Counted from the first letter of the stretch, positions 11,585 through 40,251 are shown. The stretch: DNA of 64,000 nt from Anaerolineales bacterium (GCA_034434015.1 DAOUAB010000229.1:1-64000); one strand, 5' to 3'. Translations and numbers: made by a program. Notes: generated by a model from the sequence alone, not told the origin.

Positions 11585-12178
11585 ATGTTCCGCAAACTCA
11601 TCCCAGCTCTAAGCGCACTGCTGCTGCTTGGCGTCTTGCTTATCCCGCATCCGGCTTCGGCCCACGAAGAAGTCACCGTCGGCGACTACACGCTCGAAAT
11701 CGGCTGGGTGAATGAGCCGGTGTTGCTGGGGGAAACCAATGGCGTCTTCCTGAGTGTCAGGAACACCGAAACTAAAGAACCCGTCGAGAGTCTCACGACC
11801 CTGCAAGTCGCCGTCGCCACGGGCGGCCAAACCCGCGACCTGGAACTGCACCCGCTCGGCGAGGATGCGCCCGGCCAGTATGCCGCCGACTTCATCCCCA
11901 CCGTGCGCGGCACGTACACGGTGAAGCTCACCGGCAAGATCGAAGAGCAGGACGTGGACCTGGAGCAAGAAATCGAAGAAGTCGGGCTGGCCGAAGACTA
12001 TCAATTCCCAATCGTCTTGCCTTCTCTGCCTGAGATGAACCAACAACTCACCGCCCTGCAAGCCGAGAACCAGGCGCTGCGGGCCTCCGCCACGCTCAAC
12101 CAATGGCTAGCCATTGGAGGCATCATCGTCGGGCTGGCCGGGCTGGCGGTGGGCGTCGTCAGCCTGCGCCGGAAATAA
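11585..12178 (+). CDS. YcnI-like (DUF1775) secreted copper-binding protein with C-terminal TM anchor
   Basis: RBS aggagg 7 nt upstream of ATG; signal peptide ending ASAHEE with His predicted as first mature residue; C-terminal TM; immediately upstream of a CopC-CopD gene, as in B. subtilis ycnI-ycnJ. Confidence 0.55.
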   Translation: MFRKLIPALSALLLLGVLLIPHPASAHEEVTVGDYTLEIGWVNEPVLLGETNGVFLSVRNTETKEPVESLTTLQVAVATGGQTRDLELHPLGEDAPGQYAADFIPTVRGTYTVKLTGKIEEQDVDLEQEIEEVGLAEDYQFPIVLPSLPEMNQQLTALQAENQALRASATLNQWLAIGGIIVGLAGLAVGVVSLRRK

Positions 12179-12182
12179 GGCG

Positions 12183-14936
12183 ATGAAGGCGCGCCGGCAT
12201 TTTCTCATCGTGTGGGTGGCGGTCAGCGCATTGGCACTGCTCTGGGCGAGGGCGATTCCAGCCTTCGCCCATGCCGTGCTCCTCTCCGCTGACCCGGCCC
12301 CCAACACCCTCCTCGACACCGCGCCGGCTCAAGTTCGGCTTCTTCTGACCGAGCCGGTGGCGCCCGCCTTTAGCCGGATCGCCGTCTTCGACCAATCCGG
12401 CCGGCAAGTGGACAACGGCGATTTGAAATCGGACAGCGACGATGGCACGGCGCCCGTCGTGACTCTGCCCCCGCTTTCCAGTGGGACGTATCTCGTCAGT
12501 TGGGAAGTGCTCTCCACCGTGGACGGCCACACGACCAGCGGCAGTTTTCCGTTCGGGGTGGGAGTTGCCCAACTGACCTCCGCGCCCGGCTCGGTTTCAT
12601 CCACCGCGCAGCGGCCGACCCCGTTCAGCACCGGCGCGCGCTGGTTCAACCTGACCGGACTCGCGTTACTACTGGGCCTCCTCACCTTCCGCCTGTTGGT
12701 CTGGAACCCGGCCTTCAAGGGCGTTGAGCTGAATGAAGCCGATGAGCGACTTGACTTGGCATTTGGACGCGCGAGCCTGAAAGTGGGCATCGCCGGGTTA
12801 GCGTTGGTGGGATTGGGCTTGATTTTTACCCTGATCGCGCAGGCCGCCAGGATAAACCTGTTGAGCTTCGACAACCTGAGAACTTGGCTGGGTACGCAAT
12901 TCGGCTCACTGTGGTTGGTTCGCTTTTTAGTGACGACGACGGTGGGCTTTGCCATGGCAGATCTATACGTCGGGTTGGGAGAAGGCCGTCGAGGCTTACG
13001 CGGCTGGGAATGGTGGGCCGGACTGGCGGCGTTGATTGGCCTCGCGCTGACAACCGCCTTGGTGAGTCACAGCGCCGCCCTTACTCAGGATACCCAACAG
13101 GCCATCGCGGTGGATGTCGTGCATGTCCTGGCTGCCGGGGTCTGGGTGGGGGGCCTGCTTCAACTGGCGCTTGGGCTGTGGATGGGACGGTCATTCCCGG
13201 CGAACTCGCGGGCGTGGCTCAACTTGAGCCTCTCGCTCAACTTCTCGGCGCTGGCGGCGGGCGCGGTGGGCGCGCTGCTGGTCAGCGGAAGCTACCTGGC
13301 CTGGAAACACGTCGGGAGTTGGACCGCGCTCTTCGGCACAGCGTATGGCCTGACCTTGCTCGCCAAGCTAGCGCTGGCTGTGCCCGCCTTCAGCATCGCG
13401 GCGGTCAATCTCTTGATCATCAAGCCCAGGCTGGACGCGGCCCTCGACCATCCCGAAGCAGCTTCGGCGCTCACGCTGCAACAGCGCTTTGGGCGGCTGG
13501 TGCGCGCGGAAGGTGTATTCGCCTTGCTGGTCCTCGCCGCGGCCGGCCTACTCACCGACCTGCAACGCGGGCAAGATGCGCCCCTGCTGTCCAGCCAGGC
13601 CGAGAAGGTCACGCTGGCGCAACCCGCCGAAGACTTGAACATCTCGCTCAGCCTCGAACCGGCGCTCGTCGGGCAGAACACGTTTGATGTGTACGTGACG
13701 GATGCCAGCGGCCAGCCGGTCGCGGACGCCAAAGAAGTATCGCTGCGTTTCACGTTCTTGGGCCAATCCATCGGCACGGCCGAAGCCAACGCGCCATCAT
13801 CCGGCGATGGACATTACCGCGTGGATGGCGGCTATCTGAGTCTGGCAGGGCCGTGGCAGGTGGAAGTCGCGGTGCGCCGTTCCGAGGCGTTCGACGTTTT
13901 CGCCGCATACCGCGTGGAAGCCGGTCTGAGCGGGGCGATTCAGCCGGTAGGTGGGCAGGCCGGTCTGATTGAGCAACTAACCAAGTTCCTGACCCGCAGC
14001 GGCGGCGCGGCGACGGGCGTCTTTCTCGTGTTGTTCGCCGTCACCTGGTCACTCCTCGCCGGCCGCGCCGCGAAGGAGGACTGGCAGTTGGTGCTGCTAT
14101 TCCTGCCGAGCCTGCTTGCTTTTTGGATTGGGGGAGTCCAGCTGTTCACCTTCGTCCGCGAGTTCACGCCCGCGAAGTTTGTGACCAATCCCATCTTGCC
14201 CGACTCGGCCTCCATCACGCGCGGGCAGGAACTCTACCAGGCCAACTGTGTGACGTGTCACGGCCCGGAAGGGCGCGGCGATGGCCCAGGGGCCATTGGC
14301 CTCACCCCGCCGCCCGCCGACTTCACCGCCGGGCATACGGAGAGCCACCCGGATGGCGACCTGTATTATTGGATCAAAGAAGGGATCAAGGACACCGCCA
14401 TGCCAGCGTTCGGAGACCAGTTCGACGATGAAGACATTTGGCACTTAGTCAACTACGTCCGCCGGTTGAGCGCACAGGAATACCAACCACCCGGGCCCGG
14501 CACATCATCGCCAGGGGTCAGTGATTCGCAGGCTGTGCTGTTCTTGCAGCAAGTCGAGGGAGTGATGAATCAGTTCGCCTCCATGGAGGCAGTGGAAGTA
14601 CTTCGCGATGACAGTGGCGTCGTGACCGCTACCATAATCGCATATCCCCATTTCAATTTCAGCCGTGAGGCCATTGACGTGCAGTTTGGGCCGACGAGCG
14701 AGTTGAGTGGTCAAAGCCAAGCCCGGCAGACCGTCACATTTGCCGTCGGGACTGGCGACTTGCGCTATGACTACGTCTTGGAGGTGGACCCCGCCACGCT
14801 GCGGATTGTCCGCTGGACAATGGATGGACCGAATCACCACATGATGACCGAATACACGACCTATCATCTGCCCGCAACCGTCACCCCGCCATCGGAACTG
14901 TTTGCGCCTACGGCCACGCCCATCGGTACTCCTTAG
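12183..14936 (+). CDS. CopC-CopD fusion (YcnJ-like) with C-terminal mono-haem cytochrome c domain
   Basis: N-terminal CopC fold (signal peptide, AHAVLLSADPAPNTLL...); about 8 TM CopD region; C-terminal CVTCHGPEGRGDG CxxCH with downstream Met ligand region. Confidence 0.85.
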   Translation: MKARRHFLIVWVAVSALALLWARAIPAFAHAVLLSADPAPNTLLDTAPAQVRLLLTEPVAPAFSRIAVFDQSGRQVDNGDLKSDSDDGTAPVVTLPPLSSGTYLVSWEVLSTVDGHTTSGSFPFGVGVAQLTSAPGSVSSTAQRPTPFSTGARWFNLTGLALLLGLLTFRLLVWNPAFKGVELNEADERLDLAFGRASLKVGIAGLALVGLGLIFTLIAQAARINLLSFDNLRTWLGTQFGSLWLVRFLVTTTVGFAMADLYVGLGEGRRGLRGWEWWAGLAALIGLALTTALVSHSAALTQDTQQAIAVDVVHVLAAGVWVGGLLQLALGLWMGRSFPANSRAWLNLSLSLNFSALAAGAVGALLVSGSYLAWKHVGSWTALFGTAYGLTLLAKLALAVPAFSIAAVNLLIIKPRLDAALDHPEAASALTLQQRFGRLVRAEGVFALLVLAAAGLLTDLQRGQDAPLLSSQAEKVTLAQPAEDLNISLSLEPALVGQNTFDVYVTDASGQPVADAKEVSLRFTFLGQSIGTAEANAPSSGDGHYRVDGGYLSLAGPWQVEVAVRRSEAFDVFAAYRVEAGLSGAIQPVGGQAGLIEQLTKFLTRSGGAATGVFLVLFAVTWSLLAGRAAKEDWQLVLLFLPSLLAFWIGGVQLFTFVREFTPAKFVTNPILPDSASITRGQELYQANCVTCHGPEGRGDGPGAIGLTPPPADFTAGHTESHPDGDLYYWIKEGIKDTAMPAFGDQFDDEDIWHLVNYVRRLSAQEYQPPGPGTSSPGVSDSQAVLFLQQVEGVMNQFASMEAVEVLRDDSGVVTATIIAYPHFNFSREAIDVQFGPTSELSGQSQARQTVTFAVGTGDLRYDYVLEVDPATLRIVRWTMDGPNHHMMTEYTTYHLPATVTPPSELFAPTATPIGTP

Positions 14937-15054
14937 AGGCGATCATAATCACGGTTGAGCGCGCAGGAGCACCAACGCGTCCTGAGAAGAGGAACACCTG
15001 ACTCGCCTGTTGGCGCAACGTGCGGCGGTGGCTCTAAAACAAGGAGAAGAGTTG

Positions 15055-15660
15055 ATGGAACAGACGACAAAGAAAAAGAAGCCTGCCGGGGCGCGCCGCA
15101 AGGTCCGCCGACGCCGGACGATCACGGGAACGACTGTCGTTAGCGTCATCCTGCTGGCCGTGGTCGGTATCGTGGCGCTCGCCGTCTACCAAACCTTAGC
15201 GGCCCGGGCGGAAGCCTCAAAGCCGATTGAGGGCGTCGAACAATTCCCCGCGCTCGAGCGCGGTCACGTGCAGGGAGCCGTCGCTTACGCACAGACGCCC
15301 CCGGTCGGTGGTCCGCACGAGCCGGCGTGGCAGAACTGTGGCGCATACACTCAGCCCCTCCAGAACGAGAACGCCGTTCACTCGCTCGAACACGGCGCGG
15401 TATGGATCACCTACCGGCCTGATCTCCCCGCCGCTGAAATCCAGCAACTTCAGGATCTGGCTCGGCAGAGCGGCTATCGCCTGCTCAGCCCGTACCCAGA
15501 CTTGCCCAGTCCAATTGTGATCTCCGCGTGGGGCTATCAACTCAAATTGGAACGGGCCGACGATCCCCGGCTGATGCGCTTCATCCAGAAGTATGAACTG
15601 AGCCCGCTGGCGCCGGAGCCGGGCGCGCCCTGCACCGGTGGTGTTGGACAGCCGGGCTAG
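15055..15660 (+). CDS. DUF3105-family membrane-anchored protein
   Basis: RBS aaggagaag; N-terminal basic region plus TM; GGPHEPAWQNCGAYTQP ... AVHSLEHGAVWITY matches the DUF3105 pattern; commonly paired with DUF305. Confidence 0.65.
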   Translation: MEQTTKKKKPAGARRKVRRRRTITGTTVVSVILLAVVGIVALAVYQTLAARAEASKPIEGVEQFPALERGHVQGAVAYAQTPPVGGPHEPAWQNCGAYTQPLQNENAVHSLEHGAVWITYRPDLPAAEIQQLQDLARQSGYRLLSPYPDLPSPIVISAWGYQLKLERADDPRLMRFIQKYELSPLAPEPGAPCTGGVGQPG

Positions 15661-15665
15661 GAGAC

Positions 15666-16352
15666 ATGAGGATGACGACTGAACAAATGCCCGCCGAGTC
15701 GCCCTCGCCCCGCGCCGTGCTCGCATTTGACGCGAGCGTGCTCGCGTCATTTGGCGCGTTGCTGGTGATTGTGGCGGTGCTCGCCTTCTGGCTGGGCGCG
15801 CGGCAAAACCTCGCGCCCAGCGCGAGCTCCCCGGACGTGGGCTTCGCCCGCGATATGATGAGGCACCACGCGCAGGCGGTGGATATGGCGACGCTATTGC
15901 GCGACCGCACCGACGACCCTGAGATGCGCCAGCTCGCGCTCGACATCATGCTGACGCAGCAGGCGCAGATCGGCCAGATGCAGGGCTGGCTGACGGTGTG
16001 GAATTTACCCATCGCCAGTACCGACCCGGCCATGGCGTGGATGGGCATGCCGGCTGGCTACTCAATGCCCGGCATGGCGACGCGCGAACAGATCAACCAG
16101 CTGGCGGGCCTGAAAGGCGTGGCGGCGGACGGACTGTTCCTGCAGTTGATGATCCCGCATCATCGCGGCGGCGTGATCATGGGACAGGGCGCGCTGGAAC
16201 GCGCGCAACAGCCCCAGGTCCGCCGGCTGGCTCAGTCCATCGTGGACGCGCAGACGAGCGAGATCGCCTATATGCAAGACCTGTTACGGCGCAAAGGTTT
16301 CCCGCCCGTGCCCGATGAGCCGGTGATGAACCATCAAAACATGTCGCCATGA
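15666..16352 (+). CDS. DUF305-family protein (two MxxHH motifs), copper-resistance associated
   Basis: DMMRHHAQAVDMA and LMIPHHRGGVIM repeats; TM anchor. Confidence 0.8.
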   Translation: MRMTTEQMPAESPSPRAVLAFDASVLASFGALLVIVAVLAFWLGARQNLAPSASSPDVGFARDMMRHHAQAVDMATLLRDRTDDPEMRQLALDIMLTQQAQIGQMQGWLTVWNLPIASTDPAMAWMGMPAGYSMPGMATREQINQLAGLKGVAADGLFLQLMIPHHRGGVIMGQGALERAQQPQVRRLAQSIVDAQTSEIAYMQDLLRRKGFPPVPDEPVMNHQNMSP

Positions 16353-16374: not shown

Positions 16375-16809
16375 ATGAAAGTCAAAACCATCATCTTCGT
16401 CCGCACGCTCTTAGGTATCCTGCTCGGATTGTCCGCATGTTCTTCCCCGGCGCTTAGCGTCAGCGACGGGTGGTCGCGCCCGGCTGCAGCGGGCAACAAC
16501 GGCGCCGCCTACTTCATCATTCGCAACGGCACAGTCCACGCCGATACACTCCTCGGCGTAACAACCGATAGCGCCGGGCAGGCCGAGATGCACATGACCA
16601 TGGTGGACGCCAATAACGTCATGTCCATGCACCCACAGGCGACCGTTGACATCCCCGCGGGCGGCACGGTGGAGTTCAAGCCCGGCGGTCTGCACGTCAT
16701 GCTCATCGAGCTGAAGCAAGATCTCAAGGCCGGCGATGTTTATTCGCTGACTCTGCGGTTCCGCAACGCCGGTGACGTCCCCGTTACTATCACGGTCCAG
16801 GACCAATGA
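16375..16809 (+). CDS. Copper chaperone PCu(A)C (DUF461) lipoprotein
   Basis: Lipobox LSAC; conserved HxnM..M pattern (AEMHMTMVDANNVMSMH) and GGLHVMLIEL typical of PCuAC. Confidence 0.8.
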   Translation: MKVKTIIFVRTLLGILLGLSACSSPALSVSDGWSRPAAAGNNGAAYFIIRNGTVHADTLLGVTTDSAGQAEMHMTMVDANNVMSMHPQATVDIPAGGTVEFKPGGLHVMLIELKQDLKAGDVYSLTLRFRNAGDVPVTITVQDQ

Positions 16810-17697: not shown

Positions 17698-18369
17698 ATG
17701 GAGGCCAATCTTCTCATTATTGAGGATGAGTTGGAGTTTGCCGACTACCTGCGGCGTGGGCTGACGTACGCGGGTTACCGCCTACGGGTCGCCACCAGCG
17801 CCGAGGCCGGGCTGGATCAACTGCGCCGCAGTCACCCCGATCTCATCCTCCTCGACGTGATGCTGCCGGGCATGGACGGCATGATGGCCTGCCGCCAGCT
17901 GCGCGAGTCCGGCTTCACCGGCCCGGTGCTCATGCTCACCGCGCGCGACGCTGTGCCCGACCGGGTGATGGGGCTGGACTCCGGGGCGGACGATTATCTG
18001 GTCAAGCCGTTTGCGTTTGACGAACTGCTGGCGCGTCTGCGCGCGTTGCTGCGCCGCACGGGTGGGATGAGCAATCTCATCACCTTTGCCGATCTGGAGT
18101 TGGACGGCAACCTCCGCGTGGCGCGCCGCAGGGGCAAGGTGATCCGTCTGACCCGCACCGAATACGACCTGCTGGCCCTCTTCCTGGAACATCCCCGGAA
18201 CGCGCTCTCACGCGAGACGCTCATCGCCTGCATCTGGGGCATGGATCACGAGCACGACCCCAATGTGCTGGACGTATACATCTCTCGACTGCGCCGCAAA
18301 CTCGGCGACCCGCCGTTGATTCACACCCTGCACGGCGTCGGCTATGTGCTTCAGGATGACGCGGCATGA
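17698..18369 (+). CDS. OmpR-family two-component response regulator
   Basis: Receiver domain (LLDVMLPGMDG, phospho-Asp context) plus winged-helix trans_reg_C (LTRTEYDLLALFLEHP). Confidence 0.9.
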   Translation: MEANLLIIEDELEFADYLRRGLTYAGYRLRVATSAEAGLDQLRRSHPDLILLDVMLPGMDGMMACRQLRESGFTGPVLMLTARDAVPDRVMGLDSGADDYLVKPFAFDELLARLRALLRRTGGMSNLITFADLELDGNLRVARRRGKVIRLTRTEYDLLALFLEHPRNALSRETLIACIWGMDHEHDPNVLDVYISRLRRKLGDPPLIHTLHGVGYVLQDDAA

Positions 18370-19751
18370 TCCCATTGCGCTGGCGACTCACCCTGTGGCA
18401 TCTGGGCCTGACAGCCCTGGGCCTGTTGGGCTTCATCCTGATTTCGTACCGGGTCCTGTCCGACTCGTTGCGCGCCGAAGTGAACAACACCCTGGCCGAA
18501 CGCGCCAACCACGTCGCCGACGCGGTCGCCGTGGTGCCCAATCGCCCAATCGAGGGCATCTCCCAGGAAGCCACCGACGAGTTCCGCTCGCCCGGTATCT
18601 ACGTTCAGTTGTTCAACACCGAAGGCGTGGTCGTCGCACACTCATTCAACCTGGGCGCGCAGCAATTGCCCGTGCCGGCCGCCGACCTCAACCGGGCGTT
18701 AGCGGGCGAAAGCTTCTACGCCGCGACGGAAATTTCGGGTCAACCCGTGCAGTTGTTTTACCGCCCCATCCAACGCGACGGCCGGATTGTGGGTGCGGCG
18801 CAGGTGGGGCAGTCGCTCGCCGGGTCGGAGACCACACTCAGTCGTCTGCGGCTCATCTATGCCATCGGCACGGCCCTGGTACTGCTTTTCGGATGGGCGG
18901 GCGGATGGGTGTTCGCCCGCCTGGGCTTGCGGCCTGTGGCGCGCGTCACGCAGACTGCACGCGACATTGTCCGGGCCGAAGACCTCTCGCGCCGCGTGGC
19001 GTATTCCGGCCCTGCCGATGAGGTCGGCACGCTGGCCACCACCTTCAACGAAATGCTGGACCGGCTGCACATCCTGTTCGACAGCCAGCGGCGCTTCCTG
19101 GCGGAGGCCGCCCACGAGCTCCGCACGCCGCTCGCCTCCATGCTGGGCAACGTGGACTTGCTGGCGGCCTTCGGCGACGACCCGGCGCGGCGGCAGGAAA
19201 CCCTCGCCGCGCTCCAGCGCACCGGCCGGCACGTGGCCCGCCTGCTGGACGATTTGCTGCTCCTCGCCCAGGCCGAAGCAGGCTGGCATTTGTCCCCACT
19301 TGAGCCGGTCGCCCTGGATGATGTGCTCATGGAAGCCTACGAGGCAGCGCAATCGACCACGGGAAGTGTTACGCTCAAAGTAGACCGGTGCGAACCGGCC
19401 TGCGTGCGCGGCGACCCTGACCGCTTGCGGCAGGCGTTCATCAACCTGATTGACAATGCGGTGAAACACTCACCGCCAGGAGGCGTTGTCACCCTCAACG
19501 TCTGGCGCGAAGAGGGCCAGGTGAAGGGGAGCGTGGAAGACTGCGGCCCCGGCATTCCCCCCGACGCCCTGCCGCATATCTTCGAGCCGTTCTTCCGCGT
19601 ACCCTCCGGCGAACGCCTTCCCGGCGTCGGCCTGGGCCTAGCCATCGTCCACTGGACGGTGCGTGAACACGGCGGAGAGGTGGCGGTCGAAAGCGCCGCC
19701 GGGCGTGGCACAATGGTGAGCATTACGCTCCCCGAATACGCCTCACAATAG
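18366..19751 (+). CDS. Sensor histidine kinase (2 TM, HAMP, HisKA, HATPase_c)
   Basis: H-box HELRTPLASMLGNVDLL; N/G boxes NLIDNAVKHS, GVGLGLAIV; ATGA overlap with the regulator. Confidence 0.9.
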   Translation: MIPLRWRLTLWHLGLTALGLLGFILISYRVLSDSLRAEVNNTLAERANHVADAVAVVPNRPIEGISQEATDEFRSPGIYVQLFNTEGVVVAHSFNLGAQQLPVPAADLNRALAGESFYAATEISGQPVQLFYRPIQRDGRIVGAAQVGQSLAGSETTLSRLRLIYAIGTALVLLFGWAGGWVFARLGLRPVARVTQTARDIVRAEDLSRRVAYSGPADEVGTLATTFNEMLDRLHILFDSQRRFLAEAAHELRTPLASMLGNVDLLAAFGDDPARRQETLAALQRTGRHVARLLDDLLLLAQAEAGWHLSPLEPVALDDVLMEAYEAAQSTTGSVTLKVDRCEPACVRGDPDRLRQAFINLIDNAVKHSPPGGVVTLNVWREEGQVKGSVEDCGPGIPPDALPHIFEPFFRVPSGERLPGVGLGLAIVHWTVREHGGEVAVESAAGRGTMVSITLPEYASQ

Positions 19752-19925
19752 TCTGCTCTCATCCAAATTTCAGAACTTGTACAGGACTTTCTGAACCGGC
19801 GCGGCTATAGTCTGCTGCGCCGAATGCTCGGGTGTCCGGCTTCATAGCGACTGGCCTTGGCCCAATCGGCGTGCGGGCTGAGGCCAGATATTTGTCGAGT
19901 CCCTTCAGGCGGAGAAATCCATGGC

Positions 19926-21497
19926 ATGAACCGCAAAGAACGCACGGTCCTCGTCACCATCGTCATCAACCTGCTGCTTATCGCCTTCAAATTCTGGCTC
20001 GCAGGCGCATCCGGCAGCCTGGCCTTGCGGGCCAGCGCCCTGCACTCCATCGCCGACGCCGCCATCGGCGGCTTCGTGCTCGTCGGCCTGCTCCTCAGCC
20101 GGTGGAACGAGGCGCGCGCCCAGCGCAAAGGCCAGGTGAGCGCCATCGAAAACTGGGTGGCGCTGGCGGTGGCCGCCGCCATCTTCTACGTCGGTTTCGA
20201 CATCGTGCTGGAGGTATTGAGCGGCGAGCCGCCCGAACTCGCGAACCTCGGCCCCATCACGCTGGCCTCGCTCGTCACAGTCGCGGCGGCCTACTTCATC
20301 GCGCGTTACAAACTCTACGTCGGGCGGCAGACTAACTCGCCCGCCCTCATCGCCGGGGGCTATCACTCGCAGATGGACATCTATGCTTCCATCGTGGTGG
20401 TGGCCGGGCTGGCAGGCGCGGCGCTCGGCCTGCCCAATCTGGACAAGGCCGCCGCCGCCGTGGTGGTGGTCTTCATCCTCTTCTCCGGCTACGAGATTGC
20501 GTCCTCGGCGGTCAACGCCTTGCGCCACCGGGAGACGCTAGACATCGAAGGCGAAACCGCCGGCCACGTGCACCGACATCCGCTTGTGGCGGCGGGCGTG
20601 TGGCGCGTGTTCGTCCCGGCGGCCGCCCTCGTACTGCTGGCGCTGTATCTGCTTTCCGGTTTCTACGCGGTTCAGCCGGGCGAGGCCGCCGTCGTGCGCC
20701 GCTTCGGAAGTGTGCTTGCCGGGAATGTCGGCCCTGGCCTGCATTACCGCCTGCCGTGGCCGGTGGACCGCGTGGACATCGTGGCCGTGAACAGCATCCG
20801 CCGCGCCGAGGCTCCGGCCAGCCTCATGCTCACCGGCGACGAGAACCTCATCAATGTGCGCCTGAGCATTCATTACACCGTGACCGATCCCGCCGCGTTC
20901 TTGCTCAACGTGGTAGACCCTGAAGGCACGGTGCTGCAAGCCGCCGACGCCGCGATGCGGCAGGTGGTGGCGAACGAGGGCGTGGATGCCCTGCTCACCG
21001 TGGACAAATCCGCTATCCAGCAACGCGCCGCCGCACTGACGCAAACGGCTCTCGACAGTTACGCCTCCGGCCTGCAAGTCGTCGGGGTGCAACTGCTGGA
21101 GAGCAGCCCCCCGCCGGAAGTGGCCGAGGCGTTCCGCGACGTGGCCAGCGCGCGCGAGGACAAGAATACCTTCATTAATGAAGCCCTGGCGTACCAGAAC
21201 GAGGTCCTGCCCGTGGCGCGCGGCGACGCCGCAAAAACCGTCCAGGCCGCCAGCGCTTACCGCGCCGAAAAGGTGGCGCTGGCGGCGGGCGACGCGGCGT
21301 TGTTCACCAGCCGCCAGGGCGCGTATGCCGATGCGCCCGAAATCACCCGCCTGCGCCTGTACCTCGAAGCCGTCGAGAAAGTCCTGCCCGGTTCACGCAA
21401 ATTCGTGTTGGACGCCGCCGTGCGCCTGCAGACCACCGACCTGTGGTTCCCCGGCGCCCCTTCGGGCAACGCGCAGACCTTTCCGCCCCAGCCGTGA
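19926..21497 (+). CDS. Fusion protein: cation-diffusion-facilitator (CDF) 6-TM domain plus extra TM plus HflK-like SPFH/band-7 domain
   Basis: N-terminal CDF signature (SGSLALRASALHSIADAA with HxxxD in TM2; HSQMD HxxxD in TM5). C-terminal 300 aa align with HflK (FYAVQPGEAAVVRRFG ... HYRLPWPVDRVD ... SAREDK). No canonical CDF C-terminal domain. Confidence 0.7.
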   Translation: MNRKERTVLVTIVINLLLIAFKFWLAGASGSLALRASALHSIADAAIGGFVLVGLLLSRWNEARAQRKGQVSAIENWVALAVAAAIFYVGFDIVLEVLSGEPPELANLGPITLASLVTVAAAYFIARYKLYVGRQTNSPALIAGGYHSQMDIYASIVVVAGLAGAALGLPNLDKAAAAVVVVFILFSGYEIASSAVNALRHRETLDIEGETAGHVHRHPLVAAGVWRVFVPAAALVLLALYLLSGFYAVQPGEAAVVRRFGSVLAGNVGPGLHYRLPWPVDRVDIVAVNSIRRAEAPASLMLTGDENLINVRLSIHYTVTDPAAFLLNVVDPEGTVLQAADAAMRQVVANEGVDALLTVDKSAIQQRAAALTQTALDSYASGLQVVGVQLLESSPPPEVAEAFRDVASAREDKNTFINEALAYQNEVLPVARGDAAKTVQAASAYRAEKVALAAGDAALFTSRQGAYADAPEITRLRLYLEAVEKVLPGSRKFVLDAAVRLQTTDLWFPGAPSGNAQTFPPQP

Positions 21498-21530
21498 AGA
21501 ACGCACACAGCCGGTTCTGAAGGCATCCCG

Positions 21531-21836
21531 ATGACCCAACAACGAGATTTCCAGGCCGTGGACGACGCATTGCGAACTTATCCCATCCCACCTGCGCCGG
21601 CTACGCTGCTGCCGGGAACGATGGCGCGCGTTCGCGCCACCGCCCCACTCCGTTTCCGCCTGAACTGGCTTGACTATGCACTTTGCTCGTTTGCCACTGT
21701 CATGGTGGGATTGTCCCTCCTTTTGTGGCAACCATCGCTGCATTCACTCACGCACGTGTACCTGGCACTGGTACGGCTCTGGCACGCCTTTCAGTGGCTG
21801 TTTATTGAGGCGTTCGCTTGGTTCGGAAACCACTGA
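21531..21836 (+). CDS. Hypothetical small membrane protein
   Basis: ORF between the CDF-HflK and hflC genes; one or two TM. Confidence 0.35.
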   Translation: MTQQRDFQAVDDALRTYPIPPAPATLLPGTMARVRATAPLRFRLNWLDYALCSFATVMVGLSLLLWQPSLHSLTHVYLALVRLWHAFQWLFIEAFAWFGNH

Positions 21837-21888
21837 GGGCCATCGCCTCATCGTTACTGACTCTCTACGAGGAGAAGGAATAACTTCT

Positions 21889-22833
21889 ATGAAACTCATC
21901 CGCAACCTCGCCCTCGGCTTCATAGCCCTCGCGTTTCTGGCCGCCTACCTGGTCTTCTTTCAAGTGGACGCCACCGAGTACGCCATCGTCACGCAGTTCG
22001 GCCAGCCGGTGAACGTCATCACCCAGCCGGGCCTCTACGCCAAACTGCCCGATCCCATACAAAGCGTGGTGCGCATCAACAACCAGCTGCGCGTCTACAA
22101 CCTGCCGCAGACTGAATTCCTGACGGCAGACAAAAAGAACATCGTCCTCGAAGCCTACGCCACCTGGGAAGTGACCGACGCGCTGACCTTCCTCCGAACC
22201 GTACGCGACCCGGTGGGCGCGGAGACGCGCCTGGCCGACATTGTGGCTTCTGAACTCGGAGTAGCGCTCGGCCAGGTGGAACTGAGTCAACTCGTCACCA
22301 CCGACGCAGCGCAGTTGAAACTGCCCGATACTCTGAACGCTGTGACGCAGGGCGCGGCAGGCCGCACGACGCAATATGGCTTTGCCGTCACTGACGTGCG
22401 CCTCAAGCAGCTCACATTCCCGCAGGCCAACCTCACCAGCGTCTTCCAGCGCATGAAGGCCGAGCGCGAAGCCATCGCCCGCCAGTTCCGCTCGGAGGGC
22501 ACTGAACAGGCGGCCAAGATTCGCGCCGACGCCGATGCGCAGAAAGCGCAAATCCTGGCCGACGCCAACCAGCAGGCGGCTGAGACGCGCGGCCAGGCCG
22601 ACGCGGAGGCCATCGCCATCTACGCCGCCGCCTTCGGCAAAGACCCGGAGTTCTATCGCTTCCTGCGCACCCTGCAATCTTATGAGACGTTCATTGACAG
22701 CAATACGACCCTCATCCTGCCATCTGACTCGGAGCTGCTGCAATACCTCAACCCGGGAAATTCCAGCGCGAGCGTCAACAGCAACTCCGAGGTGACCGCC
22801 ACCCCGACACCGACGGCGACGGTCACGCCGTAG
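21889..22833 (+). CDS. hflC: HflC-like SPFH-domain protein
   Basis: RBS gaggagaagg; N-terminal TM then band-7 domain (YAIVTQFGQPV ... LTADKKNIVLEAYATWEV); Thr/Pro-rich C-terminus. Confidence 0.8.
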   Translation: MKLIRNLALGFIALAFLAAYLVFFQVDATEYAIVTQFGQPVNVITQPGLYAKLPDPIQSVVRINNQLRVYNLPQTEFLTADKKNIVLEAYATWEVTDALTFLRTVRDPVGAETRLADIVASELGVALGQVELSQLVTTDAAQLKLPDTLNAVTQGAAGRTTQYGFAVTDVRLKQLTFPQANLTSVFQRMKAEREAIARQFRSEGTEQAAKIRADADAQKAQILADANQQAAETRGQADAEAIAIYAAAFGKDPEFYRFLRTLQSYETFIDSNTTLILPSDSELLQYLNPGNSSASVNSNSEVTATPTPTATVTP

Positions 22834-22842
22834 GAGGCCCGG

Positions 22843-23958
22843 ATGACGACCGACACACCCACTCCACCTCCTCCACCACAGCGCCCGCGCTTTGATTGGC
22901 CTGGCTTGTTGCGCCAGATCGGACAGGCTGTCGCCCGATTCATTCGTAGCCTGGTCGGCGATGGCGAATCGCCGCTGGCTGACCTGCGCGCCGCCTTCGG
23001 CCATCTCAAATGGAATCGGGTCCTGTGGGGACTCATCGGTCTTGCCATCGCGGGCTATCTCGCCACCGGCGTGTACATCGTTGCGCCGGGCGAGGCTGCG
23101 GTCGTGCGGCGCTTCGGGGCTATCGTCGAGCCGCGCGCAGAGCCGGGCGCGCACTATCGCCTGCCCTGGCCCATTGACCGCGTGGACCTTGTCAACGTGG
23201 GCGACGTGCGCCGCGAAGTCGTCGGCGTGGCCGAACCCGAAGAGGGCCACGAGCATCCCGAGCCTCCTTCTAAACTTCAGGTGCTCTCCGGCGATACCAA
23301 CGTGATTGACGTGGAAATCGTGGTGCAGTATCAGGTGCGCGACCCCGCTGCCTATCTCGTCAACGTGCAATACGCGCCCTACCGCCTGGTGCGCGACGCG
23401 GTGCGGCAGGCCGTCACGGGCCTCGTTAATCAACTACCGGTGGACGACATCCTCACCACCGAACGGCAGGCATTGCAAGACGCCATCCGTGTTGAGACGC
23501 AGAAGCGGCTGGACGACTACAACAGCGGCCTGGTCGTCGTCGGGCTCAATCTGCAGAAAGCCTTCCCGCCCGACGAGGTGGCGGCCGCCTTCACCGACGT
23601 CAACAGCGCCCGAGAAGACAAGGCCCGCGCCATCAACGAAGCTACCGGCTACGCCAACAGCCTCCTCCCCGAAGCGCGCGGCCAGGCCGAGGGTATCCTG
23701 GCGCAGGCGCAGGCTTATCGCTCCGACGCGCTGGCGCAGGCCAATGGCGCGGCGCAGGCTTTCGAGGCCGTGCTGGCCGAGTATCAAACCAACTCGGAAA
23801 TTTACGGCGAAGACGTGACGCGCTACCGGCTGTACCTGGAAACACTGGAGAAGATTCTGCCGCGCGTGCAGGTGTACACGGTGGACACGCGCAACGGCGG
23901 CGAGGTGAATTTGCGGCTGTTGGGCAACCCTGCTCCCGCACCGACACCTGCCCCGTGA
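22843..23958 (+). CDS. hflK: HflK-like SPFH-domain protein
   Basis: Pro-rich N-terminus, TM, GEAAVVRRFGAIVEPRAEPGAHYRLPWPIDRVD, DVNSAREDK; paralogous to the C-terminal half of the upstream fusion. Confidence 0.85.
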   Translation: MTTDTPTPPPPPQRPRFDWPGLLRQIGQAVARFIRSLVGDGESPLADLRAAFGHLKWNRVLWGLIGLAIAGYLATGVYIVAPGEAAVVRRFGAIVEPRAEPGAHYRLPWPIDRVDLVNVGDVRREVVGVAEPEEGHEHPEPPSKLQVLSGDTNVIDVEIVVQYQVRDPAAYLVNVQYAPYRLVRDAVRQAVTGLVNQLPVDDILTTERQALQDAIRVETQKRLDDYNSGLVVVGLNLQKAFPPDEVAAAFTDVNSAREDKARAINEATGYANSLLPEARGQAEGILAQAQAYRSDALAQANGAAQAFEAVLAEYQTNSEIYGEDVTRYRLYLETLEKILPRVQVYTVDTRNGGEVNLRLLGNPAPAPTPAP

Positions 23959-23970
23959 AGGTGACGTTCG

Positions 23971-26298
23971 ATGGCTGAAGGCTGGAAGCAAGTCTGGGAC
24001 GACATCGTCAACGCCCTGCGCGGTGGCGAACCGAGGCCCGAACCACAGACGCCGCCGGTCGAGAAACCGGCCCTGCCCCCTGAGGTCGCGCCGCCCGAAG
24101 TCGAAGCTTTGCCGCCGACGATAAGCGCCGAATCGTCGGTCGAGGCTTCAGCGGTTCCCCTGGCTGCAGAACCCGCCGCGGCAGTGGTCGAGACTCCCCC
24201 ATCGGAAGTCGCGCCCTCAGTCGAACCCACTGGCGAGGCTGCGCCACTGGTTTGGGAGACCGGCGCCGGACCCGGCCTGCCGGTTGAAGGGGAGGGGGTA
24301 GCCAGCCAACAGGCAGCGCCTGAACCCGCGCCGACGGCGCGACAAATCTGGCTGGGGCGCCTGCGCACGGGCGCGCTGTACGCCGGGCTGGCCGCGGTGT
24401 TCGTCATCGGTCTGTGGTTTGCAGGCGGCTATCGCTGGTGGCCACAAGCCTATCTCTGGTGGCTGAGCCTGACTGCGCCTAAGCCGCCTGCCTCCGACGT
24501 GATCGCCACATTCGATGGCGGCCAGATCACCATCGCCGATGTGGAAGCCCACTTGAAACTGCTCGTGCCGGAAGAGTATCAGGTCGTTGCCCGCACGCCG
24601 GATACGCTGCTGGCCGTGGTCGAGGACATGGTGATGGATGAACTGGTGCGGCGCTGGGCGGCCACGCGCCAGCCAGACCGCGACGAAGACTTCAGCCACA
24701 CCATGCAGCACATCACCGAGAGCCTCAACCTGGAGTCGCTCGACCTCCAGCGACACGAGGGCGAAATCCAGGTGACGGAGAGCGAAATCCAGGATTACTA
24801 CAACGCCAACAAAGCGCAGTTCGGGGACCAAACCCTTGACCAAGTGCGCGATCAAATCCGGCAGACGCTCGTGTCGCAACGCGAGCAGGGATATATCGAA
24901 GGGTATATCAAGCGCCTGAAGGACAACGCCTCGATCACCCGCAATTTCGAACTGCTGGACGTACCGGCCCCGGCCGAGGACGACTTGCGCCGCTATTACG
25001 ACGCCAACCTCGACCTGTTCAAACTCTCGCGCCGCGCCGTGGTGGATGAACTGCAATTCCCCGCGGGCGCCGATGAGGCTGCCGCTCGCCAGAACGCCGA
25101 CGATGCGCTGCTCAAACTGCGCTCAGGTGCAACGTTTGGCGAGGTCGCTGGCGCGATCACCGGCACACTGGCCTTCACCGGCACGACTTTTAGCGAGGGC
25201 ACCCGCGACCCGGCCTGGGATGCTGCGGTGTTCGCGCTGACGGCGAACGAATTGAGCGATGTCTTTCGCGCGGGCGACTTTTTCTACATCGTCCGGCTCA
25301 ACGAACTTCAGCCCGCACGCACGCAGACGCTGGATGAAGTGCGACCCGTGGTGATGGCGGCCGTTCAGCAACAGAAAACTGAGGAATGGTTCAACGCTAA
25401 CGCCGGCAAAACGCTCTTCACGCTCAAGGGACGGCAGTATACGTTGAGGCAGTTTTACACGGAGTACAAAGAGCTGGATATTTCCACCCAGGCGCAGTAC
25501 GGCGGTCCGGAAGGCATGCAGCAACTGGCGGAATTGTTGATCGAGCGTCTCCTGCTCGTGGAAGACACCTACGACCAACTGCTGGACGTGCAGAACAAGC
25601 CGCTGGTGGACGAGGCGCGCCTGCAGGTGCTCAAGCAAATGCTGCACCAGGAAGAGATTGACGACAAGATCCAGGTGACCGACGAGGAGCTGCGAAAGTT
25701 CTACGATGAGAACATTGACCTGATGGCCCTGCCGCCCAGGTCGCGCATCCGCTATATCCGCATCGGGCTGGGTTCCACCGAAGACGAACAGAACGCCGCG
25801 CGCGCCCGCGCCGACGAAGCCTACAAAAAACTCGTGCCGGGCCTCTTCCAGCAGGGCGCAGACTTTGCCGCCGTCGCACAGGAATACTCCGAAGACCCGG
25901 AGACTGCCGCTAACGGCGGCGAACTCGACGGCTGGATCGGGGAGAGTGAAGATATCCTGGCCGAGGCGCAACTGCATCCATTCCACGAGGCGATTCTGCC
26001 GTTACAGCCAGACGAGATCAGCCGGCCTTTTCAATTTGGAGACAGCCTGTACATCGTACAGGTTATTGAGCGCACTGAGCCGGAACGATTGGCCTTCGAG
26101 CAGGCCAGGCCCTATATCGAGGAAATTCTCACTCAGCAGAAGCACGAGGAGAGGTTGGCGCAGCTCACCGACGATCTGTTCAAACAAGCGAACGTAGTGG
26201 TTTACGAAACTGTGCTGCTAGACTACTTCAAGACACTGCCAACACCCGTGGCACCCCTGGGAGCTCCAGAAGATGGCGCGCCTTATCCCTCGCCGTGA
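23971..26298 (+). CDS. Membrane-anchored SurA/PrsA-like peptidyl-prolyl cis-trans isomerase with two PpiC (parvulin) domains
   Basis: Pro/Ala/Glu-rich N-terminus, single TM, SurA-like chaperone region, two parvulin-type rotamase segments. Confidence 0.7.
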   Translation: MAEGWKQVWDDIVNALRGGEPRPEPQTPPVEKPALPPEVAPPEVEALPPTISAESSVEASAVPLAAEPAAAVVETPPSEVAPSVEPTGEAAPLVWETGAGPGLPVEGEGVASQQAAPEPAPTARQIWLGRLRTGALYAGLAAVFVIGLWFAGGYRWWPQAYLWWLSLTAPKPPASDVIATFDGGQITIADVEAHLKLLVPEEYQVVARTPDTLLAVVEDMVMDELVRRWAATRQPDRDEDFSHTMQHITESLNLESLDLQRHEGEIQVTESEIQDYYNANKAQFGDQTLDQVRDQIRQTLVSQREQGYIEGYIKRLKDNASITRNFELLDVPAPAEDDLRRYYDANLDLFKLSRRAVVDELQFPAGADEAAARQNADDALLKLRSGATFGEVAGAITGTLAFTGTTFSEGTRDPAWDAAVFALTANELSDVFRAGDFFYIVRLNELQPARTQTLDEVRPVVMAAVQQQKTEEWFNANAGKTLFTLKGRQYTLRQFYTEYKELDISTQAQYGGPEGMQQLAELLIERLLLVEDTYDQLLDVQNKPLVDEARLQVLKQMLHQEEIDDKIQVTDEELRKFYDENIDLMALPPRSRIRYIRIGLGSTEDEQNAARARADEAYKKLVPGLFQQGADFAAVAQEYSEDPETAANGGELDGWIGESEDILAEAQLHPFHEAILPLQPDEISRPFQFGDSLYIVQVIERTEPERLAFEQARPYIEEILTQQKHEERLAQLTDDLFKQANVVVYETVLLDYFKTLPTPVAPLGAPEDGAPYPSP

Positions 26299-27271
26299 TT
26301 TTCTCAAAGTTACAGCCATGGCTGCACTGGGCCTCGTATTGGACTTGCCACAGCGGGCGCAGCCCGCCGAGGCGCCTATCGCCCTGGGCCGCGTCACGAA
26401 CTCCTCGCTGCGGGCCTACGACCGGCCGGCGTTCACGGGCAAGGCGCAATCGAAGGTGTATTGGGCCGACACCCTTGTCAACATCTATGAAGAGAAGAAG
26501 GGTGGCGACCCCGGCCAATCGCAGAACCCGGTCTGGTGGCGCACGGACGAGGGCTGGGTACATTCGTCGCTGATCCAGCCGGTACGCAATGACCTGAACC
26601 AGCCAATTGTGGACGTACCCAAAGAAGGGTTTCTGGCTGAAGTGACAGTGCCCTTCACCGAGGCCTGGCGCAATGACGATGGCAACCCGAAGAAGGTCTA
26701 TCGCTTTTACTACGCCAGCACGCACTGGGTAGACCAATCGGTCACGGATAAGAAGGGCCGCGTGTGGTATCGCGTGCTGGATGACCGGTACAAGGTCTAC
26801 TACTTTGTGTTGGCTGAGAGCCTGCGCCGTGTGGATGACGACGAGCTGACGCCGATCTCATCAAACGTGACCGACAAGCGCATCGAAGTGGATTTGAAAC
26901 AGCAGAGCCTGACCGCGTATGAGAATGGCGCGATCGCCTTGACTGCTCGCGTCTCGACCGGGCGCCGGGGAGCGGCAACGCCCAGCGGAGAATTCAAAGT
27001 AGAGCAGAAGCGGCCGTCGCGCCACATGGCGGCAAGCGATGGCAACGGCTTTGATTTGCCGGGTGTGCCGTGGGTGTCCTATATCTACTGGACGGGCGTG
27101 GCGCTGCACGGCACGTACTGGCACAACGATTACGGCACGCCGCGCAGCCGCGGTTGCATCAACCTGACGCCGGCAGACGCCAAGTGGCTGTATCGCTGGA
27201 CGCTGCCCGTCGTCCCACCTGGAGAGGATTACGTGCGGGCTCCTGAAGGCACACGCGTTGTCGTGTTTTGA
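26273..27271 (+). CDS. L,D-transpeptidase (YkuD domain) with Tat signal
   Basis: RRDFLK twin-arginine motif; catalytic HGTYWHNDYGTPRSRGCINL (His...Cys). Confidence 0.8.
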   Translation: MARLIPRRDFLKVTAMAALGLVLDLPQRAQPAEAPIALGRVTNSSLRAYDRPAFTGKAQSKVYWADTLVNIYEEKKGGDPGQSQNPVWWRTDEGWVHSSLIQPVRNDLNQPIVDVPKEGFLAEVTVPFTEAWRNDDGNPKKVYRFYYASTHWVDQSVTDKKGRVWYRVLDDRYKVYYFVLAESLRRVDDDELTPISSNVTDKRIEVDLKQQSLTAYENGAIALTARVSTGRRGAATPSGEFKVEQKRPSRHMAASDGNGFDLPGVPWVSYIYWTGVALHGTYWHNDYGTPRSRGCINLTPADAKWLYRWTLPVVPPGEDYVRAPEGTRVVVF

Positions 27272-27682
27272 CAGCACTTCAGGATGGAGCCCCAAAGAGC
27301 GGAAGCTAATCCCGGTCTTCACCCGAACTGGGAATTCCAGCGTGAAACCTGCAAACGCAATCCCTGCGCTCTTCGAGGCGGTCAGCCAGGCTGCCTATCT
27401 ACGTGACTAACCTTGGCCCGACCGTCTCGCGCCAGCAGTGGGTGAGCGCCTTCGACGCGCACTTCGCTGGGACGAGCCCGGCCAGGAGAGTGACGGACCT
27501 GCCCACCAGCAGCACGCCCGGAAATCCTCGTCCGGGCCGCCGGCATGGTGTGTTGGCGCCACGCCGTGCCAATAAAGACGATAGTGGCCAGCGAGCTGCT
27601 CATGCGGGCGGGATAGCAGGCATATTATGTGACATTCTACACATTCTTCTCATCCGAGGTTCTTGTAATTTAGAGGGGATGA

Positions 27683-32059: not shown

Positions 32060-32764
32060 GTGTCATCCAAAGCAAAGCAAGTATCACTTTCGAAGTCCAT
32101 CACGCAGCGAGAACGGCGGCAGCGCGAGCAGCGGCGCCGGTCGCTGACGAGGGCATTGTGGGCGCTGCTGGCCCTGGCCGTCGTCGGCGGTCTGGCGTTC
32201 ACCCTGCTGCCCAGGCTTCTGCCGGCGCCGCCGCCGGCGGCCACCAGCCAGGACAAGAGCCTAGGCGCGGCGGAGGCCGCGGTAACCCTGGTCGAGTATG
32301 GCGACTTCCAATGTCCGGCCTGCCGGCAGTTTGCCATGACCACGGCGCGCACGTTGAAGCAAGAGTTTGTCAGCACGGGCAAGGTGCGTTTCGTCTACCG
32401 CCATTTTGCTTTTCTGGGGCCCGAGTCGCAGTGGGCGGCGGAAGCCTCCGAGTGCGCCAACGAGCAGGGACGTTTTTGGGAGTATTTCGACGCGCTGATT
32501 GCGAACTGGGCTGGAGAGAACGCTGGCGCCTTTAGCCGGGAGAACCTCAAGCGCTTTGCCACCGAGCTGGGGTTGGAGGCCGGCCCATTCAACGAGTGCC
32601 TGGACTCCGGCCGGTATACTGAGAAGGTGCAGCAAGAGACGCGGCAGGGCCAGCAGGCCGACGTGCGCGGGACCCCCTCCCTGTTCCTGAACGATCAACT
32701 GATCGCGGGCGGGTCCAACTATGAGATTCTGAAACGCGCTATCGTCGCGGCCCTCGAACGCTAA
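32060..32764 (+). CDS. DsbA/BdbD-family thioredoxin-fold oxidoreductase, membrane anchored
   Basis: GTG start with RBS ggaggcgg; active site CPAC; second pair CANEQG..C. Confidence 0.8.
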   Translation: MSSKAKQVSLSKSITQRERRQREQRRRSLTRALWALLALAVVGGLAFTLLPRLLPAPPPAATSQDKSLGAAEAAVTLVEYGDFQCPACRQFAMTTARTLKQEFVSTGKVRFVYRHFAFLGPESQWAAEASECANEQGRFWEYFDALIANWAGENAGAFSRENLKRFATELGLEAGPFNECLDSGRYTEKVQQETRQGQQADVRGTPSLFLNDQLIAGGSNYEILKRAIVAALER

Positions 32765-37366: not shown

Positions 37367-37375
37367 CAGGATCCC

Positions 37376-37825
37376 CTATTCCTTTGCGGCTTGACGTTTC
37401 GCCGCGCAGGTCTGACAGTATCCTTCCAGGCAGATACAGGCGTGTGAGACTTCTAACCCCAATTCCTGCTGCAATTCAGCGCGCATCTGTTTCACGCGCG
37501 GGCTTTGGAATTCAACGACCTTGCGGCAGCCCAGGCAGGTGAAGTGATAGTGTTCGGGCGCGCCCACGGGTTCGTAGTGCTCGCGGGCATGATCTCGGGC
37601 CAGATAACGCTGCTCGATCAAGCCCATGTCTTTGAGGACCGTGAGGGTGCGATAGACCGTAGCCAGGCTGATGCTGGGGTCGTTCTGCCGCGCCCGCTGA
37701 TAGATGGCCTCGGCGTCCAGGTGCTCGCCGCTGGTTTCGACCACCTCCAGCACGATCTGGCGCTGGGGCGTGATGCGGTGACCGGTGGCGCGTAGGGTGG
37801 CAAGCGTTTCGGCGTGAGTGGTCAT
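37376..37825 (-). CDS. fur: Fur-family ferric uptake regulator
   Basis: HRITPQRQIVLEVV DNA-binding helix; HxH and CxxC ... CxxC metal sites (HYHFTCLGC ... CICLEGYCQTC); start MTTHAE chosen by homology. Confidence 0.85.
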   Translation of the reverse strand: MTTHAETLATLRATGHRITPQRQIVLEVVETSGEHLDAEAIYQRARQNDPSISLATVYRTLTVLKDMGLIEQRYLARDHAREHYEPVGAPEHYHFTCLGCRKVVEFQSPRVKQMRAELQQELGLEVSHACICLEGYCQTCAAKRQAAKE

Positions 37826-37858
37826 GGGAGACCGTCCGTTGGGTTGTTGCTGTTGCAA

Positions 37859-37941
37859 GTCATTCTCATTAGCGATGATAGGCAGAGGCACCCTGCTCAT
37901 CATGTGGATAATGTCACCCTGAAAACAGAATAAGTGTCACC
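37859..37941 (-). promoter_or_regulatory. Candidate Fur boxes in the fur-ftr operon promoter
   Basis: AT-rich islands in a GC-rich context. rc of 37859-37882 gives ...TAATGAGAATGAC, 10/12 to the GATAATGATAATCATTATC consensus half; a second site TGGATAATGTCACC...GAATAAGTGTCACC at 37905-37941. Confidence 0.4.
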
Positions 37942-40187: not shown

Positions 40188-40251
40188 TCCGATCATTCAG
40201 ACGTGGGGCGTTCGCACAGCGTGCGACGCCCCTGCGTTGCGTTATACGGCC

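Follow-up and report, generated by a model that had tools for sequence, protein, structure and literature searches.

In a stretch of 64,000 nucleotides from an Anaerolineales bacterium (GCA_034434015.1, DAOUAB010000229.1:1-64000; hereafter the window), a gene that we call K1 encodes a six-helix core of a cation diffusion facilitator (CDF) metal exporter, a seventh membrane helix and a complete HflK module in one polypeptide chain. K1 is followed by an hflC gene, a stand-alone second hflK paralogue (K2) and a gene for a PpiD-like peptidyl-prolyl isomerase, a run of four genes referred to below as the cassette. On balance, we lean towards the reading that the locus specifies a specialised HflK/C-type SPFH assembly of K1, HflC and K2 that carries a covalently tethered metal exporter and serves an envelope metal-stress response. 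Closely similar HflK modules fused to three kinds of exporter, a recurrent HflK–HflC–HflK gene triad, a conserved transport site and a location in metal islands behind a two-component system are most simply explained if this HflK/C clade cooperates physically with metal exporters; the scaffold family probably acts on them directly.

K1 occupies a single open frame on the plus strand (19857-21497), whose first ATG at 19926 yields a product of 523 residues. An initial annotation of the window, made from its sequence alone, had proposed the fusion and advised a check for a missed stop or frameshift between positions 20600 and 20660; the open reading frame (ORF) table contains neither a stop nor a change of frame there or anywhere else in the gene. 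Domain scans recover both halves of the protein. Pfam Cation_efflux (PF01545) matches residues 9-199 over nearly the entire profile (positions 2-197 of 198; E 4e-26, 92.3 bits versus 26.6), and Band_7 (PF01145) matches residues 249-420 (E 3e-19). The HflK equivalog model TIGR01933 aligns with residues 246-496 well above its cut-off (235.5 versus 159.4 bits; profile 1-248 of 261), whereas its score against the enterobacterial HflK model NF008181 stays below threshold (191 versus 660). The CDF superfamily model TIGR01297 is likewise passed (residues 5-199, 88.1 bits versus a cut-off of 82.35), with a match confined to profile positions 2-198 of 285, which indicates that the cytoplasmic C-terminal domain of CDF proteins is absent from K1. 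Only a 20-residue linker separates helices 6 and 7, at the place where that domain would stand, and no further Pfam domain was found in the protein. The proposal that an extra membrane helix and a full HflK replace the usual C-terminal domain is thereby borne out.

Searches against solved structures agree with this layout. Residues 224-495 of K1 align with residues 77-343 of E. coli HflK (PDB 7vhp, E 1e-49), membrane anchor included, and residues 10-208 match the YiiP/FieF structures 3h90 and 2qfi weakly but significantly (E 6e-5). Among NCBIfam models for CDF subfamilies the best are MamB, Cdf31, MamM, MntE and FieF, all far under their cut-offs. An AlphaFold2 monomer model of K1 built on 25 homologues contains six helices (residues 3-29, 32-62, 68-99, 108-136, 139-166 and 171-201), a low-confidence linker (202-221), a seventh helix (222-243) and, over residues 246-394, an SPFH domain modelled with confidence (predicted local distance difference test (pLDDT) mostly 85-94); the coiled-coil region after the SPFH domain is poorly defined, as expected for the monomer of a ring-forming protein. 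Foldseek comparison of this model with the PDB gives HflK chains as best matches, together with SPFH structures of stomatin, prohibitin, erlin and flotillin. For the whole model the top 50 matches in the PDB are SPFH structures only, with nothing on the CDF half, and the CDF assignment therefore rests on hidden Markov models and the sequence match to YiiP. CDF proteins have an even number of membrane helices and an inside C terminus; from this topology and that of E. coli HflK, we infer that the HflK module of K1 lies outside the cytoplasmic membrane.

The CDF half retains the residues expected of a transporter. The HxxxD motifs that the initial annotation had read in TM2 (HSIAD, H40...D44) and TM5 (HSQMD, H147...D151) are both present; the ORF table, Pfam, NCBIfam, the alignment and the AlphaFold2 model all support its description of a CDF core in a 523-residue product. 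An alignment of 25 homologues shows no change at D44 or H147 and hardly any at H40 or D151. Across 70 divergent representatives from clustering at 50% identity, the transport quartet reads HDHD in 57 and HDED in a further 4, and its retention over such deep divergence argues for selection on the transport site. We therefore regard the CDF half as a putative active divalent-cation/proton antiporter. An H-D/H-D site is typical of CDF transporters of Zn, Co and Cd (and Fe) rather than of copper, and this suggests that K1 would handle a substrate of the Zn/Co/Cd/Fe type. Of the 25 homologues, 18 have an HxH motif in the linker; that the linker might bind metal is a guess. In characterised CDF proteins the cytoplasmic C-terminal domain mediates dimerisation and metal regulation. 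Some CDF proteins without this domain are nevertheless accepted as members, so that K1 is a truncated variant and is not excluded from the family. It represents a natural CDF protein that works, if it works, without the supposed regulatory and dimerising cytoplasmic domain.

The architecture recurs widely, as the initial annotation had recommended checking. With a word-indexed protein search we retrieved more than 120 clusters that match K1 over its full length at 59-100% identity, every one with both Pfam domains, from many independent metagenomes and genomes. At greater distance, at least 76 clusters have both halves (76 of the best 150 representatives at 50% identity), down to ~30% identity, and the linker and seventh-helix junction can be aligned across the fusion homologues. 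When each species was represented by a single genome, 40 species proved to encode the fusion in full length. These include many metagenome-assembled genomes (MAGs) of Anaerolineae and other Chloroflexota, with the closest relatives ~82% identical to the window, as well as Kouleothrix aurantiaca. Fusions at 62-66% identity occur in Alphaproteobacteria that are in culture, namely Aminobacter aganoensis DSM 7051, Rhizobium metallidurans DSM 26575, Chelativorans multitrophicus, Nitratireductor indicus C115, Tianweitania, Oricola, Allosediminivita and Carideicomes; a Eubacteriales MAG encodes one at 41% identity. Aquibium oceanicum has a further copy on a conjugative plasmid with a closed sequence (NZ_CP018172.1), where the Prokaryotic Genome Annotation Pipeline (PGAP) names it 'FtsH protease activity modulator HflK'. 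The fusion family is not rare in sequence databases, in which it is annotated simply as 'HflK', a name that hides the transporter half.

Both its distribution among taxa and its presence on a plasmid indicate that the fusion has spread horizontally. The cassette is ~64% identical between Anaerolineae and Phyllobacteriaceae/Rhizobiaceae, is plasmid-borne in Aquibium and has the two-component system travelling with it, which indicates that the module as a whole has passed horizontally between phyla. Some MAG titles conflict with sequence kinship, as in an 'uncultured Methylomonas sp.' record on a contig 82% identical to Anaerolineales; such discordant records are probably mis-binned or mislabelled, and titles of this kind were kept out of the taxonomy. 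The statement in the initial annotation that no CDF–SPFH fusion had been described holds within what we could search: a full-text search of open-access papers and preprints, whose coverage is incomplete, gave no published description of CDF–SPFH, P-type ATPase–SPFH or SO_0444–SPFH fusions, and no description of a CDF–SPFH fusion was found in a 2009 evolutionary survey of prokaryotic SPFH proteins.

CDF proteins are one of three exporter classes joined to this type of scaffold. Among the top representatives, other exporters precede a closely similar HflK module that exceeds the TIGR01933 cut-off: a heavy-metal P-type ATPase (P0232, TIGR01525 611 bits; P0239, P0247 and P0190 are partial) and SO_0444-family Cu/Zn efflux permeases (P0200 and P0261, NF033936 419 and 352 bits; P0178, P0236 and P0263 are similar). 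By pairwise identity and in a crude neighbour-joining tree, the nearest relatives of the ATPase- and permease-fused HflK modules are one another and the CDF-fused ones, and the HflC and K2 genes of the cassettes each form a group of their own. HflK of E. coli and Sinorhizobium, which belong to classical hflK-hflC loci, are only ~31-33% identical to the exporter-fused and cassette modules. We inspected four distant members on their contigs. Two SPFH genes stand downstream of each of three CDF–HflK fusions (32-41% identity); in the two cases with DNA they pass the HflC and HflK models respectively. The triad of exporter–HflK, HflC and HflK is thus kept in distant members at 30-40% identity. The SO_0444 fusion P0200 is preceded by HflC and HflK genes. 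Three unrelated families of metal exporters have thus each acquired HflK modules that closely resemble one another, with HflC and HflK partner genes retained beside the CDF and SO_0444 fusions; taken comparatively, this is strong evidence that SPFH scaffolds and metal export are functionally coupled.

The SPFH partners in the window belong to the same system. The initial annotation had described canonical hflC and hflK genes downstream of the fusion: both are present and score above their equivalog cut-offs, but they are to be read as cassette-specific paralogues and not as the housekeeping pair. The window HflC clades with the HflC partners of other cassettes in the neighbour-joining tree, and K2, which shares 44% identity with the HflK portion of K1, groups with the K2 genes of other cassettes in the tree and by pairwise identities. 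An HflC partner gene adjoins the fusion in nearly all of 47 loci compared (46 related loci and the window), and the isomerase gene lies 3′ of the three SPFH genes in 39 of the 47. The isomerase matches Pfam Rotamase_2, Rotamase_3 and Rotamase, each over two stretches. Its score against the PpiD model NF008054 (66.5) is far below the cut-off of 493, and we therefore call it PpiD-like in layout only.

Several further details concern the cassette in the window. The ATG of hflC is preceded, 8 nucleotides upstream, by the ribosome-binding site GGAGAAGGA. The gap between the fusion gene and hflC measures 391 nucleotides (21498-21888), versus ~20-80 nucleotides in relatives, and contains a plus-strand ORF (21531-21836) for 101 residues with a predicted membrane helix. 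This ORF had no family match in Pfam or NCBIfam and no tblastn match in any related locus, and we did not adopt it as a member of the system; it may be a lineage-specific small gene or the remnant of an insertion. A scan of positions 19600-27600 for promoters and terminators gave counts equal to those of shuffled controls and was uninformative. Many distant exporter-fused HflK modules (P0132, P0137-P0139, P0141-P0150 and the ATPase fusions P0232, P0239 and P0247) contain an SPFH insertion of 30-45 residues with the conserved motif (Y/L)-W-E-S-x-H-x-x-G-x-Y. K1 of the window does not have it, and K2 carries a shorter His/Glu-rich insert, EPEEGHEHPEPP, in the same place (approximately window positions 23230-23265). 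The insertion might form an outward-facing loop that binds metal or a partner.

To describe the surroundings of the cassette, we clustered crude ORF calls from the 47 loci; neighbour families with a member in the window were checked by Pfam, the others were named by eye from sequence, and antisense ORFs called over hflC/hflK in several loci (cluster c19) were ignored. SPFH genes are present at all 47 loci and the parvulin isomerase at 39, followed in frequency by a histidine kinase (36), a response regulator (31), PCu(A)C proteins and P-type ATPases (17 each), a DsbA-like thioredoxin and M23/LysM peptidases (12 each), DUF305, SCO and L,D-transpeptidase proteins (11 each), an HtrA-like protease and MerR regulators (10 each), and CcdA and Nramp proteins (8 each). 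The order in the window is P-type ATPase, CopC-CopD protein, DUF3105, DUF305, PCu(A)C, two small membrane proteins, response regulator, sensor kinase, fusion, hflC, hflK, isomerase, YkuD protein and DsbA-like protein (Table 1). Kouleothrix and 'Rhizobium sp. AN80A' keep the run of fusion, HflC, HflK and isomerase genes with different flanks. The Aquibium oceanicum plasmid carries the regulator-kinase pair, fusion-hflC-hflK-isomerase, a heavy-metal ATPase, PCuAC, SCO, DsbB and a thioredoxin, with CopC, CopD, an Nramp transporter and further PCu(A)C/SCO genes also nearby. The PpiD-like fourth gene, the heavy-metal-like two-component system upstream, the copper/metal island and the abundance of the family in databases all go beyond the initial annotation.

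Table 1 Positions of the fusion gene, its domains and neighbouring features in the window
Feature	Position	Strand	Basis
CDF-HflK fusion gene K1, 523 aa	19926-21497	+	ORF, Pfam, NCBIfam, homologues
K1: CDF six-helix membrane domain, aa 1-201, site H40/D44/H147/D151	19926-20528	+	Profiles, alignment, AlphaFold2, YiiP match
K1: linker, aa 202-221, acidic, HxH motif (GHVHRH), predicted cytoplasmic	20529-20588	+	pLDDT <50
K1: transmembrane helix 7, aa 222-243, counterpart of the one membrane anchor of HflK	20589-20654	+	Alignment, AlphaFold2
K1: HflK module, aa 246-496, SPFH domain and coiled-coil region	20661-21413	+	TIGR01933, structure-sequence match, Foldseek
hflC, cassette paralogue, 314 aa	21889-22833	+	TIGR01932, 192.4 bits vs cut-off 134.4
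K2, stand-alone second hflK paralogue, 371 aa	22843-23958	+	TIGR01933, 221 bits vs cut-off 159
PpiD-like membrane-anchored peptidyl-prolyl isomerase, two parvulin domains, 775 aa	23971-26298	+	Pfam, NF008054
L,D-transpeptidase (YkuD), overlaps end of isomerase gene	26273-27271	+	Pfam E 3e-25
DsbA-like thioredoxin	32060-32764	+	Pfam Thioredoxin_4, DSBA
Heavy-metal P-type ATPase, HMA domain, SPC...HEGST motifs	6057-8399	+	Pfam, motif search
CopC-CopD-YtkA-cytochrome c fusion protein	12114-14936	+	Pfam CopC, CopD, YtkA, Cytochrome_CBB3
DUF3105 protein	15010-15660	+	Pfam E 2e-49; upstream of cassette in Kouleothrix too
DUF305 protein	15666-16352	+	Pfam E 9e-50
PCu(A)C copper chaperone	16375-16809	+	Pfam PCuAC E 4e-35
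OmpR-type response regulator, upstream of kinase and fusion	17698-18369	+	Best NCBIfam TIGR01387, 214.6 bits vs cut-off 279.2
Sensor histidine kinase, 4-nt overlap with regulator gene	18366-19751	+	Best NCBIfam TIGR01386, 193.2 bits vs cut-off 292.55

The wider window looks like a large multi-metal resistance region. It contains three P-type ATPase genes with differing motifs: SPC...HEGST with an HMA domain in the first (6057-8399), APC in the second (48170-50296), and in the third (50677-52791) an N-terminal CAEC and none of the motifs searched for. The product of 12114-14936 is an unusual chain of 940 residues that combines CopC, CopD, a YtkA-like domain and a cbb3-type cytochrome c. By eye, we further recognised an ArsR/SmtB-like regulator (5340-5654), an FTR1/EfeU-like iron permease with a Fur-family regulator on the minus strand (36077-37903) and, on the plus strand, a second OmpR-type regulator/kinase pair (40180-42419) followed by an extracytoplasmic function (ECF) sigma factor and a putative anti-sigma factor (42485-44201). 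We considered a fixed link of the cassette to copper and rejected it: the distant triads adjoin Nitro_FeMo-Co, CbiA/ParA Fe-S ATPases and DUF364, and the P-type ATPases near cassettes differ in their signature motifs (CPC, SPC...HEGST). On anaerobe-like contigs (L048 and that of P0218) the triad stands among Nitro_FeMo-Co (DUF) proteins, CbiA/ParA-type Fe-S ATPases, a radical SAM protein and DUF364, which points to handling of other metals or of cofactors in these lineages.

A possible mode of action can be sketched by analogy with the E. coli complex. Outside the membrane, the HflK half of K1 would join HflC and K2 in a ring or cage that resembles E. coli HflK/C, leaving the CDF domains tethered at a ring on the outer face. 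Metal stress might induce the assembly through the adjacent two-component system. The exporter would then be held in a delimited patch of membrane beside an extracytoplasmic folding factor, and metal export could be coupled to the protection or repair of envelope proteins; in this subclade the PpiD-like factor and the neighbouring thiol-redox and peptidoglycan-remodelling genes may deal with envelope damage. The scaffold may also stand in for the missing dimerisation and regulatory domain of the CDF half by keeping exporter domains close to one another.

Several observations weigh against this proposal. The export activity, assembly, topology and induction proposed here are read from anatomy and context. 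A few lineages among the 70 divergent representatives lack the site residues (MNHH, RDHL, LHQE and others) yet keep the fusion, and export is thus not universal in the family. The island is mostly copper-related, whereas the H-D/H-D site points to Zn, Co, Cd or Fe. TIGR01387 and TIGR01386, both heavy-metal models, are the best matches of the response regulator and the kinase, but neither protein reaches its cut-off. On the contig of the ATPase fusion P0232 we found no SPFH neighbour. The tree of HflK modules is a neighbour-joining tree without support values, drawn from a set chosen by similarity to the query. The predicted template modelling score (pTM) of the K1 monomer model is low (0.40), and the model says nothing about the position of the CDF domain relative to a ring.

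FtsH offers the most obvious alternative partner. The initial annotation had suggested FtsH-linked quality control of the transporter, an idea that drew on the family name. In its full form, the exporter would sit permanently inside an FtsH–HflK/C complex, with FtsH controlling its turnover or the exporter modulating FtsH by local supply of metal. HflK/C can either raise or lower the proteolysis of membrane proteins by FtsH (PMC12048511), and the K1 module passes the HflK equivalog model and shares an alignment of ~270 residues with the E. coli HflK of the FtsH–HflK/C structures. However, an FtsH-like gene was found within ~8 kb of the fusion in none of the 47 loci, a count to be read with the fact that ftsH is usually encoded elsewhere and is normally unlinked to hflK/hflC, and the conjugative plasmid carries the cassette with no ftsH nearby. 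The HflK and HflC proteins of the cassettes also clade apart from the E. coli and Sinorhizobium HflK/C described above. FtsH is a zinc protease whose catalytic zinc site is cytoplasmic, and an exporter would deplete metal there, not supply it. We consider this arrangement unlikely.

An extension of the exporter-scaffold reading, which we judge equally improbable in its full form, is that exporter-tethered HflK/C proteins constitute a distinct, FtsH-independent class of SPFH cage, in which CDF, P1B-ATPase and SO_0444 pumps discharge into a membrane patch with an extracytoplasmic chamber walled by HflK/HflC paralogues and the metal is passed on or sequestered. If such a walled chamber exists, exported metal could be handed to chaperones or nascent metalloproteins, or be kept from unfolded envelope proteins alongside the PpiD-like chaperone. 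On this reading, bacterial SPFH cages would gain a client that is defined and marked genetically, and would serve metal handling much as a compartment does.

A somewhat weaker candidate still is a CDF-like domain without net export, acting as a metal-binding sensor that alters the conformation of the SPFH assembly or serving as a mere multi-helix anchor; the initial annotation had raised a metal-sensing SPFH microdomain. The absence of the cytoplasmic domain that gates and dimerises CDF proteins, the persistence of the fusion in lineages that have lost site residues and the frequent HxH of the linker would all suit such a role. Active export fits better, however, with the retention of all four site residues in most divergent representatives and with the fusion of similar HflK modules to two further classes of exporter that are full transporters, the complete P-type ATPases and the efflux permeases of the SO_0444 family. 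That separate CDF and hflK genes were joined by an error of sequencing or assembly, or by a missed stop, can be dismissed given the continuous frame of K1, the full-length clusters from independent samples, the isolate genomes and the closed, PGAP-annotated plasmid, and the many divergent clusters that carry both halves.

The roles and contents of bacterial SPFH cages are largely open, and to our knowledge FtsH is the only established partner of HflK/C. A covalent fusion names a client directly, and the cultured Alphaproteobacteria and the conjugative plasmid that carry the cassette make the system experimentally tractable.

Compared with E. coli HflK/HflC (SPFH3; PDB 7vhp, 7wi3 and 9cz1), the cassette shares a single membrane helix followed by SPFH and coiled-coil regions, and an adjacent HflC gene. 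E. coli HflK begins with a cytoplasmic tail of ~76 residues where K1 has a six-helix metal transporter, and two paralogues form the E. coli complex as opposed to the three of the cassette (K1, C and K2). Gene order differs as well, hfq-hflX-hflK-hflC in E. coli versus K-C-K and the isomerase within a metal island, and the loci compared here gave no sign of the FtsH association known for E. coli HflK/C. The other half of K1 resembles the CDF proteins FieF/YiiP, MamB and CzcD in its six-helix core and in the TM2 and TM5 HxxxD motifs that form the tetrahedral transport site. Unlike these characterised proteins, which continue into a cytoplasmic C-terminal domain, K1 re-enters the membrane and leads into a predicted extracytoplasmic SPFH domain.

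SPFH-NfeD operons such as QmcA-YbbJ (PDB 8z5g) provide a bacterial parallel, in which an SPFH protein and a dedicated membrane partner share a conserved operon. They belong to the stomatin-like subfamily, with QmcA matching K1 at E 2.5e-4 only, and encode an NfeD protein, of which the cassette has none; its partner is instead a transporter fused in cis. The closest functional analogy and precedent comes from eukaryotic stomatin-type proteins, SPFH oligomers found with membrane transport proteins: stomatin associates with ASIC3 (PMC3433786), is bound to aquaporin 1 in PDB entry 9zd2 and counts solute carrier (SLC) transporters among its associated proteins (bioRxiv 10.1101/2025.08.30.673307). 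Those associations are non-covalent, lie on the cytoplasmic face and involve another SPFH subfamily, whereas in K1 the client is fused to the scaffold and the partners are HflC and HflK paralogues.

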